A stretch of DNA of 64,000 nucleotides, taken from NCBI RefSeq assembly GCF_035084215.1, contig NC_090354.1, positions 25,048,001 to 25,112,000 of the forward strand, given 5' to 3'. Positions 22,996 to 54,238 of this stretch are shown here, piece by piece. This DNA is from Heptranchias perlo. Its lineage: Eukaryota. The position numbers and the translations under genes are program-made. How positions within the stretch are numbered: position 1 is the first letter of the stretch; every line of letters starts with the position of its first letter. Below the pieces are notes generated by a model. The model was given only the letters and a program-made list of their open reading frames with translations, did no database searches and was not told the origin of the DNA.

Positions 22996-24194
22996 AGTTG
23001 TAAACTTCTATGGCTCAGAGGCTTCCTAGTGAGTTGGTTACACTTACAACAGCAGAGAAGCCTATGTGCAGGTCACTCACTGGTTCTCTCTGCTGGGGAA
23101 TGTGTGAGGGGAGAGTGCACAAAATAAATCATGAACAATCCTGTAAAGTTTTGTACAAGAATTGAGTCTGCGCACCCAAGAGTACATGGTTGTCAACTTG
23201 ATTTGTTACTTGGGAGATGTATCTCTCTGAAGGAGGTTGAAACATGATTAAAGTGTGCTGTTTATAAAGGGGATGATAGCTCCGTGATGGTCAGGGTGTC
23301 TGCACTTTCCTGATATGTGTGACCGGGAGATAGGGCTGCCGTTGGTACCGTGACTTCGTAAAATTGGCCCTTTAAAATTCACACATGCACCATGGGACAG
23401 CTGGAACAAAACCTCAGCGAAATTCAGTGCCTTCACAAGGGGAAGAGTGGGGTGCGGAGAAGGGAATTGTGAGTTACAAGACCTGATAAAGAGTTTCCTA
23501 ATAAGAACTGAATCAAATCCACAAGACTTGCACACTGTGAGCTATGCCACAGGTTGGTAAGACACGGGTCAGTGTCTGTGGATTCTCGTGTGTTTTTTTA
23601 AATTTGTTCATGGGATGTGGGCGACACTGGCAAGGCAATATTTATTGCCCATCCCTAGCTGCCCAGAGGCATTAAGAATCACCACATAGTAGTGGGGGAA
23701 TCAAGAACAAGGGGACATAATCTTAAAATTAGAGCTAGGATGTTCAGGAGTGAAATCAGGAAGCACTTCTTCACACAAAGGGTGGTAGAAATCTGGAATT
23801 AATTTCCCCAAAAGGCTGTGGATGCTGGGAGACAATTGGAGGTTTCAAGACTGAAATCAATAGATTTTTGTCAGGTAAGGGAGCAAAGGTGGGTAATGGA
23901 GTTGAGATACAGATCAGCTATTGACTGGCAGAGTCGGCTGAACAACCTAATCCTATTCCTAAAGTGGGATTGGATTCACATGTAGGCCAGGGGATGGTAG
24001 GCTCTCTTCCCTGAAAGGCTTTCATGGTCATTCCTTCCTGGTGCCAGCACACAAATTACCAGATTAAACATATTTAATTTCACAATTACTACAGTGGGAT
24101 TTGAACTCATAACCTCTAGGTTACTAGTCTAGTACCATCACCACTAAGCTATCATGCCCTCTGTAGAGAATTAAGAAACATTTTTTTTCATCTC

Positions 24195-33235: not shown

Positions 33236-33920
33236 GACAACAAGATAAGAAACATCAATATTTTAGCACAGCTGAAAATACTGTTCTCAACAACAGCATG
33301 CAGCGCAGTAGTTGTATATCCCAGGTTCAGAGACAACTTGGTATTGAATAGCTGGGCCTGTGGCCTCATTGTGCATCCATCACGTGCTTGGTGCCTTGTA
33401 ACTTCCTCGACACTGGCATAAGCTTAATCATTCTCTGCTGCCGATCTCTGTAAGTATGCAACAGGAAACGAGTGGAACTTTGAACAGCAGGTTTCATTCA
33501 AACCATCCATCAAGCCTCATGCTGCTGTGGAAATTCCTCCTACACTGCCATTTTGAAAATGCATGCAACATTACTCAGTGTTAAGCAGTGGTTTGGAATC
33601 ACAGTAATAATTGTAACCAGTCATTAAAACTTTCACATTCTTACTCCACTACAGCATGACAACTAGATGGGTAACTCTGATTCGTTATTTTTCAATCTGA
33701 GCTTTTTCTGATACCACCAATGCCACTGTGATACATGAGGTAATGGCAGCAGCGAGTCTTGTGTAATGAGGAGGTAGGGAAGCTTGGAATGAGTTTGGAG
33801 TTCATGTACAATCTACCCTATCATGGACTCTGCCCTGTCCATTTAATCTCCTCAGGGAAAGTTCTGCATATGAACTTCCTCAACCCAATGTTAATGACAA
33901 TTCCAGAATATACCTTCAGC

Positions 33921-36900
33921 CTCACATCGCACTCTTCACCCTCACATCGTATTCCCCACCCTCACATCGCACCCTTCACCCTCACATCGCACCCTTCACC
34001 CTCACATCGTATTCCCCACCCTCACATCGCACTCTTCACCCTCACATCGCACCCTTCACCCTCACATCGTATTCCCCACCCTCACATCGCACTCTTCACC
34101 CTCACATTGCACTCTTCACCCTCACATCGCACTCTTCACCCTCACATCGCACTCTTCACCCTCACATCGCACCCTTCACCCTCACATCGCACTCTTCACC
34201 CTCACATCGTATTCCCCACCCTCACATCGCACCCTTCACCCTCACATCGCACTCTTCACCCTCACATCGCACTCTTCACCCTCACATCGCACTCTTCACC
34301 CTCACATCGCACCCTTCACCCTCACATCGCACCCTTCACCCTCACATCGTATTCCCCACCCTCACATCGCACTCTTCACCCTCACATCGCACCCTTCACC
34401 CTCACATCGTATTCCCCACCCTCACATCGTATTCCCCACCCTCACATCGCACCCTTCACCCTCACATCGCACTCTTCACCCTCACATCGTATTCCCCACC
34501 CTCACATCGCACTCTTCACCCTCACATCGCACTCTTCACCCTCGCATCGTATTCCCCACCCTCACATCGCACCCTTCACCCTCACATCGCACTCTTCACC
34601 CTCACATCGCACTCTTCACCCTCACATCGTATTCCCCACCCTCACATCGCACTCTTCACCCTCACATCGCACCCTTCACCCTCACATCGCACTCTTCACC
34701 CTCACATCGTATTCCCCACCCTCACATCGCACTCTTCACCCTCACATCGCACTCTTCACCCTCGCATCGTATTCCCCACCCTCACATCGCACTCTTCACC
34801 CTCACATCGTATTCCCCACCCTCACATCGCACTCTTCACCCTCACATCGCACTCTTCACCCTCACATCGTATTCCCCACCCTCACATCGCACCCTTCACC
34901 CTCACATCGCACCCTTCACCCTCACGTCGCACTCTTCACCCTCACATCGTATTCCCCACCCTCACATCGCACTCTTCACCCTCACATCGCACCCTTCACC
35001 CTCACATCGCACTCTTCACCCTCACATCGTATTCCCCACCCTCACATCGCACTCTTCACCCTCACATCGTATTCCCCACCCTCACATCGCACCCTTCACC
35101 CTCACATCGCACTCTTCACCCTCACATCGTATTCCCCACCCTCACATCGCACTCTTCACCCTCACATCGCACCCTTCACCCTCACATCGCACTCTTCACC
35201 CTCACATCGCACTCTTCACCCTCACATCGCACTCTTCACCCTCACATCGCACTCTTCACCCTCACATCGTATTCCCCACCCTCACATCGCACCCTTCACC
35301 CTCACATCGCACTCTTCACCCTCACATCGTATTCCCCACCCTCACATCGCACCCTTCACCCTCACATCGCACTCTTCACCCTCACATCGTATTCCCCACC
35401 CTCACATCGCACCCTTCACCCTCACATCGCACTCTTCACCCTCACATCGTATTCCCCACCCTCACATCGCACTCTTCACCCTCACATCGCACCCTTCACC
35501 CTCACATCGCACTCTTCACCCTCACATCGCACTCTTCACCCTCACATCGCACTCTTCACCCTCACATCGCACTCTTCACCCTCACATCGTATTCCCCACC
35601 CTCACATCGCACTCTTCACCCTCACATCGTATTCCCCACCCTCACATCGCACTCTTCACCCTCACATCGCACTCTTCACCCTCACATCGTATTCCCCACC
35701 CTCACATCGCACCCTTCACCCTCACATCGCACCCTTCACCCTCACGTCGCACTCTTCACCCTCACATCGTATTCCCCACCCTCACATCGCACTCTTCACC
35801 CTCACATCGCACCCTTCACCCTCACATCGCACTCTTCACCCTCACATCGTATTCCCCACCCTCACATCGCACTCTTCACCCTCACATCGTATTCCCCACC
35901 CTCACATCGCACCCTTCACCCTCACATCGCACTCTTCACCCTCACATCGTATTCCCCACCCTCACATCGCACTCTTCACCCTCACATCGCACCCTTCACC
36001 CTCACATCGCACTCTTCACCCTCACATCGCACTCTTCACCCTCACATCGCACTCTTCACCCTCACATCGCACCCTTCACCCTCACATCGTATTCCCCACC
36101 CTCACATTGCACTCTTCACCCTCACATCGCACCCTTCACCCTCACATTGCACTCTTCACCCTCACATCGCACTCTTCACCCTCACATCGCACTCTTCACC
36201 CTCACATCGCACTCTTCACCCTCACATCGCACTCTTCACCCTCACATCGCACTCTTCACCCTCACATTGCATTCCCCACCCTCACATCGCACTCTTCACC
36301 CTCACATCGCACTCTTCACCCTCACATCGCACTCTTCACCCTCACATCGCATTCCCCACCCTCACATCGCACTCTTCACCCTCACATCGTACCCTTCACC
36401 CTCACATCGCACTCCCCACCCTCGCATCGCACTCCTCACCTTCGCATCTCACTCCCCGCCCTCGTGTCTCACTCCCCGCACTCGCATCTCACTCCCCACC
36501 CTCGCATCTCACTCCCCACCCTCGCATCACACTCCCCGCCCTCGTGTCTCACTCCCCGCCCTCGCATCACACTCCCCGCCCTCGCGTCTCACTCCCCGCC
36601 CTCGCGTCTCACTCCCCGCCCTCGCGTCTCACTCCCCGCCCTCGCGTCTCACTCCCCGCCATCGCATCACACTCCCCGCCCTCGCATCACACTCCCCGCC
36701 CTCGTGTCTCACTCCCCGCCCTCGTGTCTCACTCCCCGCCCTCGCATCACACTCCCCACCTTCGTGTCTCACTCCCCGCCCTCGTGTCTCACTCCCCGCC
36801 CTCGCGTCTCACTCCCCGCCATCGCATCACACTCCCCACCTTCGTGTCTCACTCCCCGCCCTCGCATCACACTCCCCACCTTCGTGTCTCACTCCCCGCC

Positions 36901-37180
36901 ATCGCATCACACTCCCCACCTTCGTGTCTCACTCCCCGCCCTCGCATCACACTCCCCACCTTCGTGTCTCATTCCCCGCCCTCGCGTCTCACTCCCCGCC
37001 CTCGTGTCTCACTCCCCGCCCTCGCGTCTCACTCCCCGCCCTCACATCGCACTCCCCGCCCTCGCATCACACTCCCCGCCCTCGTGTCGCACTCCCCGCC
37101 CTCGTATCGCACTCCCCGCCCTTGCATCGCATTCCCCACCCTCGCGTCTCACTGCCCCACCCTCGCGTCTCACCCTTGCA
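33921..37180. repeat. Minisatellite, 20-bp unit CTCACATCGCACTCTTCACC with variants, about 160 copies
   Basis: 20-bp phase kept for about 3.2 kb; shifts to CTCGCGTCTCACTCCCCGCC units after about 36420. Confidence 0.97.
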
Positions 37181-37666
37181 TCGCAGTCTTAATATCTCAT
37201 TCTTCATTTTCACATCTCACCATCCATCCTCAGATCTCACTCTTCATTCCCACATTTCACTCTTCATCCTTACACCACATTCTTCACCCTCACATCTCAC
37301 TATTCATCCCTCGCCTGCTGGTCTCCAGACAATAATCTTGCCCTTGCCCCCATTGCATTATTTGGAGTAATTTCCAGTACGTTAGTGAAGACAAAAAACT
37401 TTGGAATCATTTAGGAGATAACTAGATGCTTTAATGGGAGACTGTGAATTTTTCTAAATGTATAGTCTAAGGTTAAATGATCTTTGAGTCCTACTAGGAT
37501 CGAATTATTGAGGGTTTGAAGCTGAACGATGAATGCCCGTGGTTAAAAACCCGACTTCTCCAGTGATCCATGTGACTTGGCTGTGAGGCCCCCCATGACA
37601 GAATAATCTGATGCTCACTATCGACACTCAGATGAAGAATGCCCATTTGGGTGAGGTACTGGAAGG

Positions 37667-39094: not shown

Positions 39095-39225
39095 ATGGAG
39101 ACCGTGGTTATAGTAGCAATTGGGGTCCTTGCAACAATTTTTCTGGCCTCCTTTGTGGCTCTTGTGGTTGTCTGCAGACATCGCTATTGTCAGCCCAACA
39201 ACCTATTGCACCAGTTCGACTCGAA
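39095..39225 (+). CDS. TMEM98: Transmembrane protein 98, coding exon 1 (METVVIVAIGVLATIFLASFVALVVVCRHRYCQPNNLLHQFDS-K)
   Basis: Kozak gccATGG at 39095; N-terminal hydrophobic anchor nearly identical to vertebrate TMEM98; ends at aa|gtaagt donor (phase 2). Confidence 0.97.
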
Positions 39226-41860: not shown

Positions 41861-41992
41861 GCCTACAGTGGATCTGATTGGCGCAATGGAGACACAGAGT
41901 GAGCCCTCAGAACTGGAGCTGGATGATGTTGTTATCACAAATCCTCACATTGAGGCGATCCTGGAAAATGAAGACTGGATAGAGGATGCCTC
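41861..41992 (+). CDS. TMEM98: TMEM98 coding exon 2 (PTVDLIGAMETQSEPSELELDDVVITNPHIEAILENEDWIEDAS)
   Basis: tttgtctcgcag acceptor, tc|gtatgt donor, 132 nt; peptide essentially identical to human TMEM98. Confidence 0.97.
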
Positions 41993-42582: not shown

Positions 42583-42616
42583 GGGTTTGGTGTCACACTG
42601 CATTGAGATTCTTAAG
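42583..42616 (+). CDS. TMEM98: TMEM98 coding exon 3 (GLVSHCIEILK)
   Basis: tctcttttctag acceptor, aag|gtaaga donor, 34 nt, frame-compatible with its neighbours. Confidence 0.95.
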
Positions 42617-42927
42617 GTAAGAATTGTGCCAGCTTTTATTGGAAACCAAAGTGAAGAGTCAAGGCTTATATTAGGAACATAGGAACAGGAGTAGAGCCAT
42701 TCAGCCTCTCGTGTCTGTTCCACCATTCAGTTAGATCATGGCTGATCTGTACCTCAACTCTAGTTACCTGCCATAGCTCCATATCCCTTGATAGCCTTAC
42801 CCAACAAAAATCTATCTATCTCAGTCTTGAAAGCTCCAATTGACCCCCAGCATCCACAGCCTTTTGGGGGAAGAGTTTTCCAGATTTCTGCTACCCTTTA
42901 TGTGAAAAAAATGCTTCCTGATTTCCC

Positions 42928-42966
42928 TTCACCTGAGGAAGGAGGAAGCCTCCGAAAGCTTGTGAA
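42928..42966 (+). ncRNA. Minimal type I hammerhead ribozyme motif (copy 1, sense to TMEM98)
   Basis: Core CUGAnGA and GAAA; stem I UUCAC/GUGAA; stem II GGAGG/CCUCC; palindromic AGCU in place of stem III. Confidence 0.7.
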
Positions 42967-43020
42967 TTTAAAATAAAATTGCTGGACTATAACTTGGTGT
43001 TGTAAAATTGTTTACAATTG
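42929..43020 (+). mobile_element. Short Penelope-like element fragment carrying a minimal hammerhead ribozyme motif
   Basis: 92-bp insert interrupting a CR1 3' end, flanked by TCCCT direct repeats; contains TTCAC-CTGAGGA-A-GGAGG-AAG-CCTCC-GAAA-GC-TT-GTGAA. Confidence 0.75.
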
Positions 43021-43673
43021 TCCCTCCTAAATGACCTATCTCTAATTTTAAGATTATGCCCTCTTATTCTGGATTCCCTCACAAGAGGAAAATAGTTTCT
43101 GTGCCTTCAATATCGAACCCCTTTATAATTTTATCGCAGGCCAGCTACAAGAATAGGAGAGATGATGAATTGGAAAGTTGTGATAAATTACTTCAAAAGG
43201 TTAAGTTGGGCACTGTGAAACTAATCGTTACATTGTAAGCAATTGTATCGAGTGCGGCTAACAGTTAGTTAAAGTTGACAAAATGAGATTGCATGCAAAT
43301 GATCCAGACCAAAGATAATTTTCATTCATCATTTGGAGTTTACACCTGTCGAGTCTCTGCTGGCACCTGAACTCATTAGGGCTTTTCTCATGCCAAGAAT
43401 ATAAGTCATAATGTTGCAGAGGAACCGAAGAGTCAATGGGACTGAGGAGCATCATACTGGAACCGATGGTGAGAATGTGTGTATTTGGCAAACCCTGACA
43501 CTGGATGAACGATGTAACAAACACCCAACATTTTTAATTAGAAAAGCAAAATGTGATCTCTGAGGTACATTTTGTTCTGGAATTTTTGAGTGTTTGCTCT
43601 GAGGGTTTAAGAACGGGTGATCTTCACTGTTGTTGATCCTTCTGATCATTTAGATCTACACTTTGTTTTACAG

Positions 43674-43789
43674 ATATGTCATACTCTGACTGAGAAACTG
43701 GTTGCCATGACGATGGGATCAGGGGCAAAGATTAAATCGCCAGCCAGGCTGAGTGACATAATCGTGGTGGCAAAGAGGATTAGTCCAAG
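43674..43789 (+). CDS. TMEM98: TMEM98 coding exon 4 (ICHTLTEKLVAMTMGSGAKIKSPARLSDIIVVAKRISP-R)
   Basis: ttttacag acceptor, ag|gtgaga donor, 116 nt; matches the TMEM98 peptide. Confidence 0.97.
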
Positions 43790-45004: not shown

Positions 45005-45064
45005 GGTGGATGATGTTGTGAGATCGATGTACCCTCCATTGGACCCCAAGCTGCTGGATGCCAG
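45005..45064 (+). CDS. TMEM98: TMEM98 coding exon 5 (VDDVVRSMYPPLDPKLLDA-R)
   Basis: ctgttag acceptor, ag|gtctgt donor, 60 nt; conserved SMYPPLDPKLLDAR motif. Confidence 0.96.
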
Positions 45065-45276: not shown

Positions 45277-45367
45277 ATTGTAAACAATTTTACAACACCA
45301 AGTTATAGTCCAGCAATTTTATTTTAAATTCACAAGCTTTCGGAGGCTTCCCCCTTCCTCAGGTGAA
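45277..45367 (-). mobile_element. Second copy of the Penelope-like hammerhead-bearing fragment, inverted
   Basis: Near-identical reverse complement of 42928-43019; motif at 45329-45367 has stem II GGGGG/CCUCC (G-U wobble replaces A-U). Confidence 0.75.
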
Positions 45368-46737
45368 CGTTGTTGAACGTTGCTTTTGTCCGAAGCACTG
45401 TTTAATGTTGGGACGTCGCAATTAAAACAGGCCTTTTGATAGAAGTGTGGTCAACTGTAAGGAGAAATTAGACTCAATGCTTGCTGCTCTTGCTGAAGAA
45501 AAGACAGGAACTAGTGTTCTTCACTAGACATGGAGGCAGGGTGAGGTGCTGACATAAAAGGGAGGATGTAGCACAGTATAGAAGTGAGTGTGGCACTGAC
45601 ACAGAGGTGGGCATGATGCTGATATGGGGATAGGGGTGGTGCAACCATGGGGGCAATTTGTAATGTGGTACGTGGGGGATTGTGGTGGCACGGAGTCAGG
45701 GTTGATGCTGGTATGGGGACTGGATGAGATGGTACAGGTTTGTGTGGAGTGAAGACAATTGCTTTGGTTGGTGACGGTGACATTTTTACACAAGATGCTT
45801 TGGTGTAAAACTAATTCTAAGGAAACTGTGATGAAGAGACAGGAACACAAATAACAATCAGAAAATGTGACGATTATTTGTACAAGAAATCTAATCAATA
45901 AAATCCAACTTCAAGGACCTTTTCACTGAACAGGAACCGATTACTCCTGATATTGCTGTCCCCGGTTGTGAGGATTAGATTGTGTAAATTAATCTGAAGC
46001 AAGTATTTAGCAATGATCCATAAACATACTGCAGGTTAAAGGTCAGATGGTGGTAAATAGTCTGCAGTACTTAAGAATGACCTATATGATCAAGGTTCAA
46101 AGATGGTGTTAAATCATCAGGGTTTATAGGAGTGAGCCACACACACAGGGATTTGGGATCTGATGGTATTGAAAGAGTGATACAGAGCTTGTCGGATTTC
46201 CAGCAAACTATATCATTGAGTGTAAAGGAGCTTGATTCTCTGCACGGTGAGCTCCTCTTTTTAAATGAACGACCTCAGGAAGTGCCAAGCAGAGGCCTCA
46301 AAGGGAGGGAGAGAGAGTCAGTGGTGTAGCTCCTCCATGCCTATTTTGCATATGTCCTGATGGACCATTAAAAGTAGCATTAGTCCAGCCATTGGTGCAC
46401 ATCCTGTCTGTTTTATAATGGCAGAGGCATTGGAACAAATCTCCAGCTCGTATTTATGCTCATGGAAGGAAAAATACAGAAGAAAACAACAGAACTAAAT
46501 TGGAAGATAGGTTATCTGTAGCCCTTAAAATCTGATTCTACTGCTAACACGCTGTCAACTGAAAACTATATGCACTTTAAGACACCTTTATATTGTGCCA
46601 AGGGGTCCTGGGGGGAAAGGGGGACCCGCGATCTTTGTACACAGTGTTGCCGATCCTGAGGAAGATCTGCTGGAAACCAGAGCCTCATAATTCTCGCCAA
46701 TAAAAGTGAGGGTTGCATGTCCGCACTTTTGCTTGTA

Positions 46738-53826: not shown

Positions 53827-54238
53827 GTAGCATAGTGGATATGATACTGGACTAGAAATCCAGAGAACGTGAGTTCAAATCCCACCATGGCCGTTTGAGA
53901 ATTTTGAATTCAGTTTTTAGAAAAATTTGGAAATAAAAATCTGGCATCAGTAAAAGTGACAACGAAGCTGTCGGATTGTCGTTAAAAACCCAACTAGTTC
54001 ACTGATGTCCTTTTCAGAAGGAAACCTACCATCTTTCCTCGGTCTGGCCTATATGACTCCAGTCCCACACCAACATGGTTGATTCTTCACTGCCCTCTTA
54101 GCCACTCAGTTATATCAAACCGCTACCAGCGGTTCAAGAAGAAGGCCCACTGCCTTTGCAGGGCAACTAGGGATGGGCTGTAAATGTTGTCCTTGCCAGC
54201 GACACTTTAATTCCTGAGAATGACTAATAAAAAAAAAT
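53827..54238 (+). mobile_element. tRNA-derived SINE (MetaSINE/SlmI-like body) with LINE-derived tail
   Basis: A box GGTAGCATAGTGG, B box GAGTTCAAATCC, body GTTCACTGATGTCCTTT..GAAGGAAACCT, tail GGGCAACTAGGGATGGGC...poly(A); minus-strand copies at about 23595-24155 and 29355-29690. Confidence 0.72.

Follow-up and report, generated by a model that had tools for sequence, protein, structure and literature searches.

We find that the 92-bp insert lying in sense in an intron of a host gene is almost certainly the hammerhead-bearing pLTR end of a Neptune-like Penelope element. Our preferred reading, to which we give a probability of about 0.7, is that this insert (copy 1) is likely a run-off cDNA of the 5′ end of an uncleaved element RNA, carrying a ribozyme that is predicted to be inactive. 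The window, that is, the whole analysed stretch of 64,000 nucleotides, also holds an antisense copy (copy 2), and no ORF or further DNA of a Penelope-like element (PLE) was seen in it beyond these two fragments. Feature coordinates are collected in Table 1.

Table 1 Positions of the two element copies, the hammerhead parts and the host exons in the window
Feature	Position	Strand	Basis or remark
Host coding exon 1	39095-39225	+	
Host coding exon 2	41861-41992	+	
Host coding exon 3	42583-42616	+	34 nt
Old LINE fragment holding the insertion	42673-43130	-	RT ORF C-terminus and 3′ end
Flank pairing with 42936-42949	42913-42928	+	Sequesters ribozyme core and stem II; folding prediction
Left TCCCT target duplication	42924-42928	+	5 bp; final T fits the element too
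Minimal type I hammerhead	42928-42966	+	Sequence, descriptor scan, fold, variant comparison
Stem I	42928-42932 with 42962-42966	+	TTCAC paired with GTGAA
Copy 1, pLTR fragment of the PLE	42929-43020	+	92 bp; about -33 to +59 relative to the predicted cut
CTGAGGA core	42933-42939	+	Followed by extra A 42940
Stem II	42941-42945 with 42949-42953	+	GGAGG paired with CCTCC; AAG loop
GAAA core	42954-42957	+	Followed by G-C-T-T, 42958-42961
Right TCCCT target duplication	43021-43025	+	Leading TC fits the element too
Host coding exon 4	43674-43789	+	116 nt; between the inverted copies
Host coding exon 5	45005-45064	+	60 nt; between the inverted copies
Copy 2, separate insertion in intron 5	45277-45375	-	Antisense; sequence comparison, descriptor scan
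Host coding exon 6	from 48550	+	

The insert and its hammerhead

A minimal hammerhead of the PLE type had been proposed here in a preliminary description, with a cut after CUU at 42961, and both points agree with the sequence. Copy 1 has the CUGANGA and GAAA core, a UH cut site and stems I and II, and the G-C-T-T at 42958-61 makes stem III the palindrome AGCU (42957-60) and places the predicted cut after U 42961. The extra base at 9/10.1 is A42940, the G10.1-C11.1 pair is G42941-C42953 and positions 15.2-16.2 are palindromic, which are features of minimal type I hammerhead ribozymes (HHRs; PMC4209133). A descriptor scan found two hammerheads in the window (plus strand, 42928; minus strand, 45362), the rate in 60 Markov simulations being 0.017 per window, whereas an Rfam scan at the gathering score gave no hammerhead match at the locus, and the search proposed earlier is thus positive by descriptor only. 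The folding energy of the hammerhead is unremarkable (z -1.77; 10 of 200 shuffles fold equally well).

The insertion itself is well defined. Alignment of three paralogous empty sites leaves 96-97 extra columns here, corresponding to the 92 bp plus the 5-bp TCCCT. In DNA contigs of run X2, the junctions of copy 1 are covered at depths of 10.7 and 11.4 against 9.4 for the flank, demonstrating that the insert is not an assembly artefact. No exact empty-site joint was found among the matches listed for two runs of one sample; a 98-nt skip in the contigs carries a different base in between and fits CR1 paralogs. The flanks of copy 1 match an RVT_1 ORF in tblastn (E 7e-11 and 4e-9) and encode the C-terminus of a minus-strand LINE RT ORF. 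The LINE fragment, which we take to be of CR1 type, is therefore interrupted at the end of its coding region and not in a non-coding tail, as had been described; the TCCCT duplication given in the same description is present.

Copy 1 lies in sense inside the 1,057-nt intron that follows the third coding exon of a gene presumed, from its protein motifs, to be TMEM98. The orientation and the intron thus match the preliminary description, and the gene name is a motif-based assignment, Pfam having named no family for the four host exons queried singly. In the RNA-type run X6, from the sample of the DNA runs, a 2,877-nt spliced contig contains exon 2 (bases 339-470) and exon 4 (503-618), and the gap between them matches the 34-nt exon 3. 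A search for RNA runs sharing at least half of the words of the stretch listed none, a result that carries no weight for or against expression. Elsewhere in the window, a long tandem array with a 20-bp period spans about 33777-37200, and two tRNA-like matches at the Rfam threshold (29.3 bits), at 24093-24152 (minus strand) and 53827-53886 (plus strand), are probably SINE heads.

A young Neptune-like Penelope family

The preliminary description had listed a PLE terminal fragment among its options, and this option holds: the unit aligns to the pLTR of an element with RT and GIY-YIG motifs. Copy 1 is identical to a long copy (L034) at 90 of 92 bases, and longer copies continue upstream into an ORF with both motifs. 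At C1:3.122-3.130 Mb, tandem units with a period of 3,088 bp are 99.9% identical and are accompanied by an inverted partial copy, so the linkage to a Penelope RT/GIY-YIG ORF that had been suggested for checking is found both in longer copies and in this tandem. The parent element is about 3.08 kb, with an ORF of 902 aa counted from Met; in the tandem, the ribozyme sits between ORFs and its predicted cut falls 92 nt before the ATG.

The 902-aa ORF contains the motifs DKG, GTAMG, YIDD and VYLIRCRKGC..YIGET, and Pfam assigns RVT_1 to it (E 3e-10) and calls no GIY-YIG domain. CCHH-like residues accompany the GIY-YIG motifs at residues 791-836, and a CX4CxxC linker, CHGNLCKTC, lies between RT and EN at residue 753. 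For the EN part, protein-atlas look-alikes score 0.95-0.96 and fall in clusters in which 18-22% of members carry GIY-YIG (PF01541). A CX2-5CxxC linker marks Neptune and is shared with Nematis (PMC8557442), and the only PLEs reported from vertebrates, as far as the accessible part of a 2026 preprint goes, are Neptune and Poseidon (bioRxiv 10.64898/2026.07.22.740005). The parent is thus best described as Neptune-like, the clade being assigned by motif only. Neptune EN+ PLEs likewise have a single ORF with RT followed by a C-terminal GIY-YIG, the CX2-5CxxC linker and CCHH-like residues, and show partial tandems, inverted 5′ copies and a tail at one end (PMC8557442). The corresponding features here are the single ORF, tandem and partial-tandem pLTRs, inverted 5′ copies and a 34-bp tail; what differs is that the family is a new one, with a burst in organism A.

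Several observations bear on its age. Over the first 100 aa of the ORF, all 150 scored matches (of 2,232 candidates) are identical, and by eye about 133 of the 150 scored ORF matches lie in open frames of at least 860 aa. At 95% likeness, the summed depth of the unit reaches millions in organism A, against 0 in X13 and less than 200 in X14, of which shares of 72% and 55%, respectively, were read; this contrast points to a recent burst.

Copies were counted by exact pattern searches of the 3.25-Gb genome. The ribozyme 26-mer gives 23,195 exact matches and a downstream anchor 26-mer 47,779, while a 25-mer upstream of the TATA box gives 15,349, about one third of the anchor count. An ORF 26-mer, in a sequence common to other subfamilies too, gives 22,015. 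A relaxed hammerhead core pattern matches 82,025 times and a control pattern once. The genome-wide count proposed earlier therefore returns tens of thousands of near-identical copies, and the locus itself is ordinary, one among tens of thousands of dead-end fragments. The published counts we compared are about 4,000 in coelacanth and about 9,000 in Xenopus tropicalis, against the 82,025 matches of a single core pattern here; a section title gives up to 120,000 HHRs for axolotl (PMC7229834). Hence the copy number is high for 3.25 Gb and is no record. Published minimal HHRs likewise have a short helix I, the extra base, palindromic 15.2-16.2 and a place in the pLTR, and most are solo motifs, probably derived from truncated PLEs (Cervera and de la Peña). 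The accessible part of the published account of minimal HHRs names no cartilaginous fish, and the 2026 preprint includes one (bioRxiv 10.64898/2026.07.22.740005); the family sampled here is very uniform.

Over 17 distinct variants of the ribozyme, 90.9% of stem cells are paired and four pairs have changed on both sides, against 32-46% paired in slid controls; these loci were chosen by the core pattern, and the core itself stands outside that comparison. A set of 78 copies (the first 100 anchored copies minus duplicates, ribozyme-internal starts and three with indels) has seven subfamily-level variable sites, none at the 17 core positions and seven at the 22 others (p 0.012), with all pairs kept. 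These sites comprise position 7, two bases of loop II, the outer pair of stem II and two wobbles in stem I. Since sequence 3′ of the ribozyme varies no more than the core does, this pattern indicates where variation is tolerated and not a uniquely conserved core. Several more PLE subfamilies on C1 have the same core with differing stems, loop II and promoter (TATATAT-type boxes). At C1:3.93-4.02 Mb (L017-L025), segmental duplicates and nested element insertions in AG-rich simple repeats inflate small-sample counts.

Ends of the short copies and their origin

The end statistics rest on the first 100 anchored copies on contig C1, and the samples are partly loci selected by pattern. Numbered from the predicted cut, 51 copies end in 3′ at +50 to +66 and 44 at +88 to +104, and the other five run into the next unit. 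The interval between these two sites is the 34-nt tail, which is 71% A+C and ends at the ATG; copy 1 stops at the first site and lacks the tail. There are 26 inverted pairs, and all 25 with two defined ends combine one short and one long end (23 of 23 after removal of segmental duplicates, p 2e-7). Duplications of 10-14 bp flank 24 of the 26 pairs, and target-site duplications (TSDs) of at least 7 bp flank 13 of 32 solo copies against 6 of 400 controls; the family's usual duplication is longer than the 5 bp of copy 1. Inverted pairs with a tail on a single arm have been published already (PMC3846280, PMC8557442), and what the genome data add is the strict short/long asymmetry of the pairs.

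At the 5′ side, 56 of the 100 copies begin between -72 and -34, 9 between -73 and -676, 20 reach further and 15 begin inside or after the ribozyme. The density of ends therefore drops about 100-fold upstream of -72, from 56 in 39 nt to 9 in 604 nt. Long copies have a TATAAAT motif 38-47 nt before the core (50 of 162 copies). Its spacing differs between two types of copy, being about 7 nt larger in A than in B, and the short copies that start at TATA+27 to +32 (22 of 45 in A, 13 of 24 in B) accordingly begin at 14-19 nt (A) or 7-12 nt (B) upstream of the core. The shift gives a Fisher p of 0.0096 with windows chosen post hoc and a rank-test p of 0.27; ends upstream of this start window number 11 of 45 in A and 10 of 24 in B. 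The typing set comprised 106 distinct short copies, 37 of which were left out as belonging to other subfamilies or matching over less than 7 nt. Further copy lists, judged by eye, show the same TATA-linked start pattern. With its 5′ end at stem I, copy 1 misses the start position placed in this way by as much as about 12 nt. Among the first 100 of 2,542 copies that start inside the ribozyme, no sharp peak at the cut site was apparent by eye, and starts at 0 to +8 from the cut are mostly AT-rich palindromic junctions. TATA and Inr motifs have been published for rotifer PLE pLTRs (PMC3846280), and a TATA-less internal promoter for the Penelope of D. virilis (PMC2377424). Within a limited literature coverage, supplements excluded, we found no published account of this family or of 5′ ends at a transcription start.

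The two 3′ sites, the pairs with one of each and the 5′ pile-up about 30 nt past the TATA box suggest a run-off origin, and short copies are probably run-off cDNAs of the 5′ end of uncleaved element RNA. We then propose a mechanistic model, built on sequence features. Pol II would start some 30 nt past the TATA box of the pLTR and a few bases before stem I, a place suggested by the TATA motif. The GIY-YIG domain would nick the target, and RT, primed at an internal RNA position about +56 or +93 relative to the cut, would pass the intact cleavage site and leave the RNA 5′ end after 90-150 nt. The cDNA end could then join the target after losing a few bases (up to about 12 in copy 1), or it could join a second cDNA made on the other strand from the other start site, giving head-to-head pairs. 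In the parent, the ribozyme may be under selection, processing tandem transcripts either in dimeric form or assisted by protein, and the intronic hammerhead would be a promoterless passenger. The broader statement, that most copies of the family are integrated run-off ("strong-stop"-like) cDNAs and that each two-ended insertion uses one start site per strand, we regard as evenly balanced.

Ordinary 5′ truncation is a possible but unlikely alternative. On this view, a long read-through or circular transcript would be copied from its 3′ pLTR, with RT tending to stall or be resected just past the ribozyme, in which case the clustering of ends does not mark the RNA 5′ end. Short PLE copies are usually explained in this way (PMC8557442; bioRxiv 10.64898/2026.07.22.740005), and circular templates have been proposed (PMC4209133). 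It accommodates the 29 of 100 copies that reach more than 100 nt upstream, 20 of them past 677 nt, and a second peak, with 10 of 100 ends at the stem I boundary (-34/-35), to which the class of copy 1 belongs. However, the approximately 100-fold drop upstream of -72 and a 5′ peak that moves with the TATA spacing speak against truncation, and a hairpin would be expected to halt RT on its 3′ side and not once it has been passed. By eye, the second units of rare tandems also often start at the same place.

Poseidon_Ac (PAc) of Anolis has two RT starts that bound an AC-rich tail, as here, and in vitro its uncleaved RNA serves as the template for synthesis on both target strands (Frangieh et al. 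2024; PMC11167929). In PAc, the beginning of the ORF is overlapped by the ribozyme, with RT starting more than 100 nt inside the frame, whereas the cut here precedes the ATG by 92 nt and the second 3′ site coincides with the ATG. In addition, the PAc study saw no difference in start site between strands in vitro (PMC11167929), whereas each of the defined pairs here combines both sites. In Adineta vaga, pLTRs likewise have TATA and Inr motifs, inverted pLTRs with a palindromic junction, a tail on one arm and solo copies, and the TSD is 8-10 bp (PMC3846280). There, solo pLTRs were explained by recombination or deletion, and antisense self-priming was invoked for the inverted junctions, a model that offers another route to inverted pairs; in contrast, many solo copies here have TSDs (13/32 as above) (PMC3846280).

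It is very improbable that the unit of 92-140 bp is a self-propagating non-LTR retrozyme or SINE, spreading by its own ribozyme-cut RNA circles. Short copies do exceed long ones by about 2:1, and animal retrozymes derive from pLTRs (bioRxiv 10.64898/2026.07.22.740005); non-LTR retrozymes are likewise short type I HHR units akin to PLE pLTRs, with monomers chromosome-wide (PMC7229834; bioRxiv 10.64898/2026.07.22.740005). They are, however, defined by tandem HHR units (PMC7229834), and short head-to-tail junctions here number 21 + 29 against 47,779 anchor matches, that is, at least 50 genome-wide or about 0.1%, a lower bound since the search used exact patterns with a 5-35 nt gap. Of 20 tandem loci inspected, most have at most two same-strand cores. 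Furthermore, short copies lack the TATA box, share subfamily variants with the long copies and stop at the two 3′ sites of the parent, being neither permuted nor bounded by the cut site; their flanks differ between copies, segmental duplicates apart. Rfam found no tRNA match at the copy 1 locus, and the whole unit aligns to the PLE pLTR. These results speak against the retrozyme-like SINE that had been offered as the other option. Tandem dimers are missing from the window, where both copies are solo, and small arrays do occur elsewhere: four head-to-tail units (period 143) plus a fifth in inverted orientation (L267; C13:53555200-53556400) and a head-to-tail array of period 137 (L268; C8:35968200-35969200). 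Both are candidate newborn retrozymes able to form a cis dimer.

The PLE transposition cycle and the role of the ribozyme in it are still open questions (PMC11167929, PMC4209133). PLE priming becomes testable in a family as young as this one, which retains many intact ORFs and combines sharp 3′ sites with asymmetric pairs and with 5′ ends tracking the TATA box, and the further subfamilies with other promoters allow an independent look at the TATA+30 rule. If the run-off reading is true, no selection on individual copies would be needed to explain why most minimal hammerheads of animal genomes are solo yet complete, and the cassettes of 90-150 bp would be a genomic record of priming by a dimeric PLE enzyme. 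It is then tempting to speculate that the rare head-to-tail cassettes on C13 and C8 are retrozymes at birth, marking a route from pLTR to retrozyme.

Copy 2 and the host RNA

Copy 2 is 99% identical to copy 1 over 45277-45367 and extends about 8 nt further 5′; by eye, a 7-nt filler and an 11-bp duplication, the latter imperfect, are seen in its flanks. Together, copies 1 and 2 make up an inverted repeat (42928-43018 and 45277-45367) with arms of 91 nt that are 99% complementary and 2,258 nt apart. The repeat encloses exons 4 and 5, together 176 nt, which is no multiple of 3. An inverted repeat around exons is a layout able to favour back-splicing or skipping.

Should the copies affect the host at all, pairing between them would be the more plausible route than ribozyme cutting, and it is compatible with the run-off reading of their origin. 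Exons 4 and 5 would be looped out, leading to back-splicing, skipping or A-to-I editing, an effect that we hold to be doubtful. The duplex of the 91-nt arms is predicted at -154.6 kcal/mol. At the position corresponding to 42992, A>G changes are frequent in RNA-type runs (18,629/316,350 in X5 and 12,887/340,198 in X6) against 60/1,509,421 summed depth in DNA run X1 of the same sample, and may reflect A-to-I editing of dsRNA from inverted pLTR pairs. This signal, however, is summed over all family copies and is not specific to the locus, and no skip or back-splice joint was seen among the matches listed.

The preliminary description had further supposed that copy 1 could cut the host pre-mRNA with a partner in trans, lowering or altering expression, and this is the most improbable of the alternatives. 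Its core is intact and in sense, element sequence is abundant in two RNA-type runs (summed contig depth, unstranded), so that partners may exist, and a lizard PLE ribozyme, that of PAc, cleaves only once PLE protein is added (PMC11167929). Against this, minimal HHRs in vitro are inactive as monomers and of low activity as dimers (PMC4209133), 8 of 9 retrozyme dimers tested failed to cleave (bioRxiv 10.64898/2026.07.22.740005), and lizard RNA reads, in the accessible part of that study, have no ends at the cut site (PMC11167929). Moreover, the antisense copy 2 in the same transcript is able to pair with copy 1. Folding predictions, which take no account of proteins or co-transcriptional order, give stem pairing probabilities of 0.6-1.0 for the isolated unit and, in the intron context, 0.00 for stem I in three of three windows and 0.00-0.30 for stem II. 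In these windows, the ribozyme is predicted to pair with its upstream flank or with other sequence. An active trans dimer is predicted at -20.7 kcal/mol, no more stable than two monomers (-21.6 to -23.4), and the best co-fold of two units (-29.7) is an inactive form. Copy 1 is thus predicted to be inactive as a ribozyme at its intronic site. As the ribozyme is predicted to be unfolded by its flank, nothing in the energies favours the trans dimer and the spliced contig from the same sample connects exons 2 and 4 across the intron, there is very probably no meaningful cutting of the host RNA.
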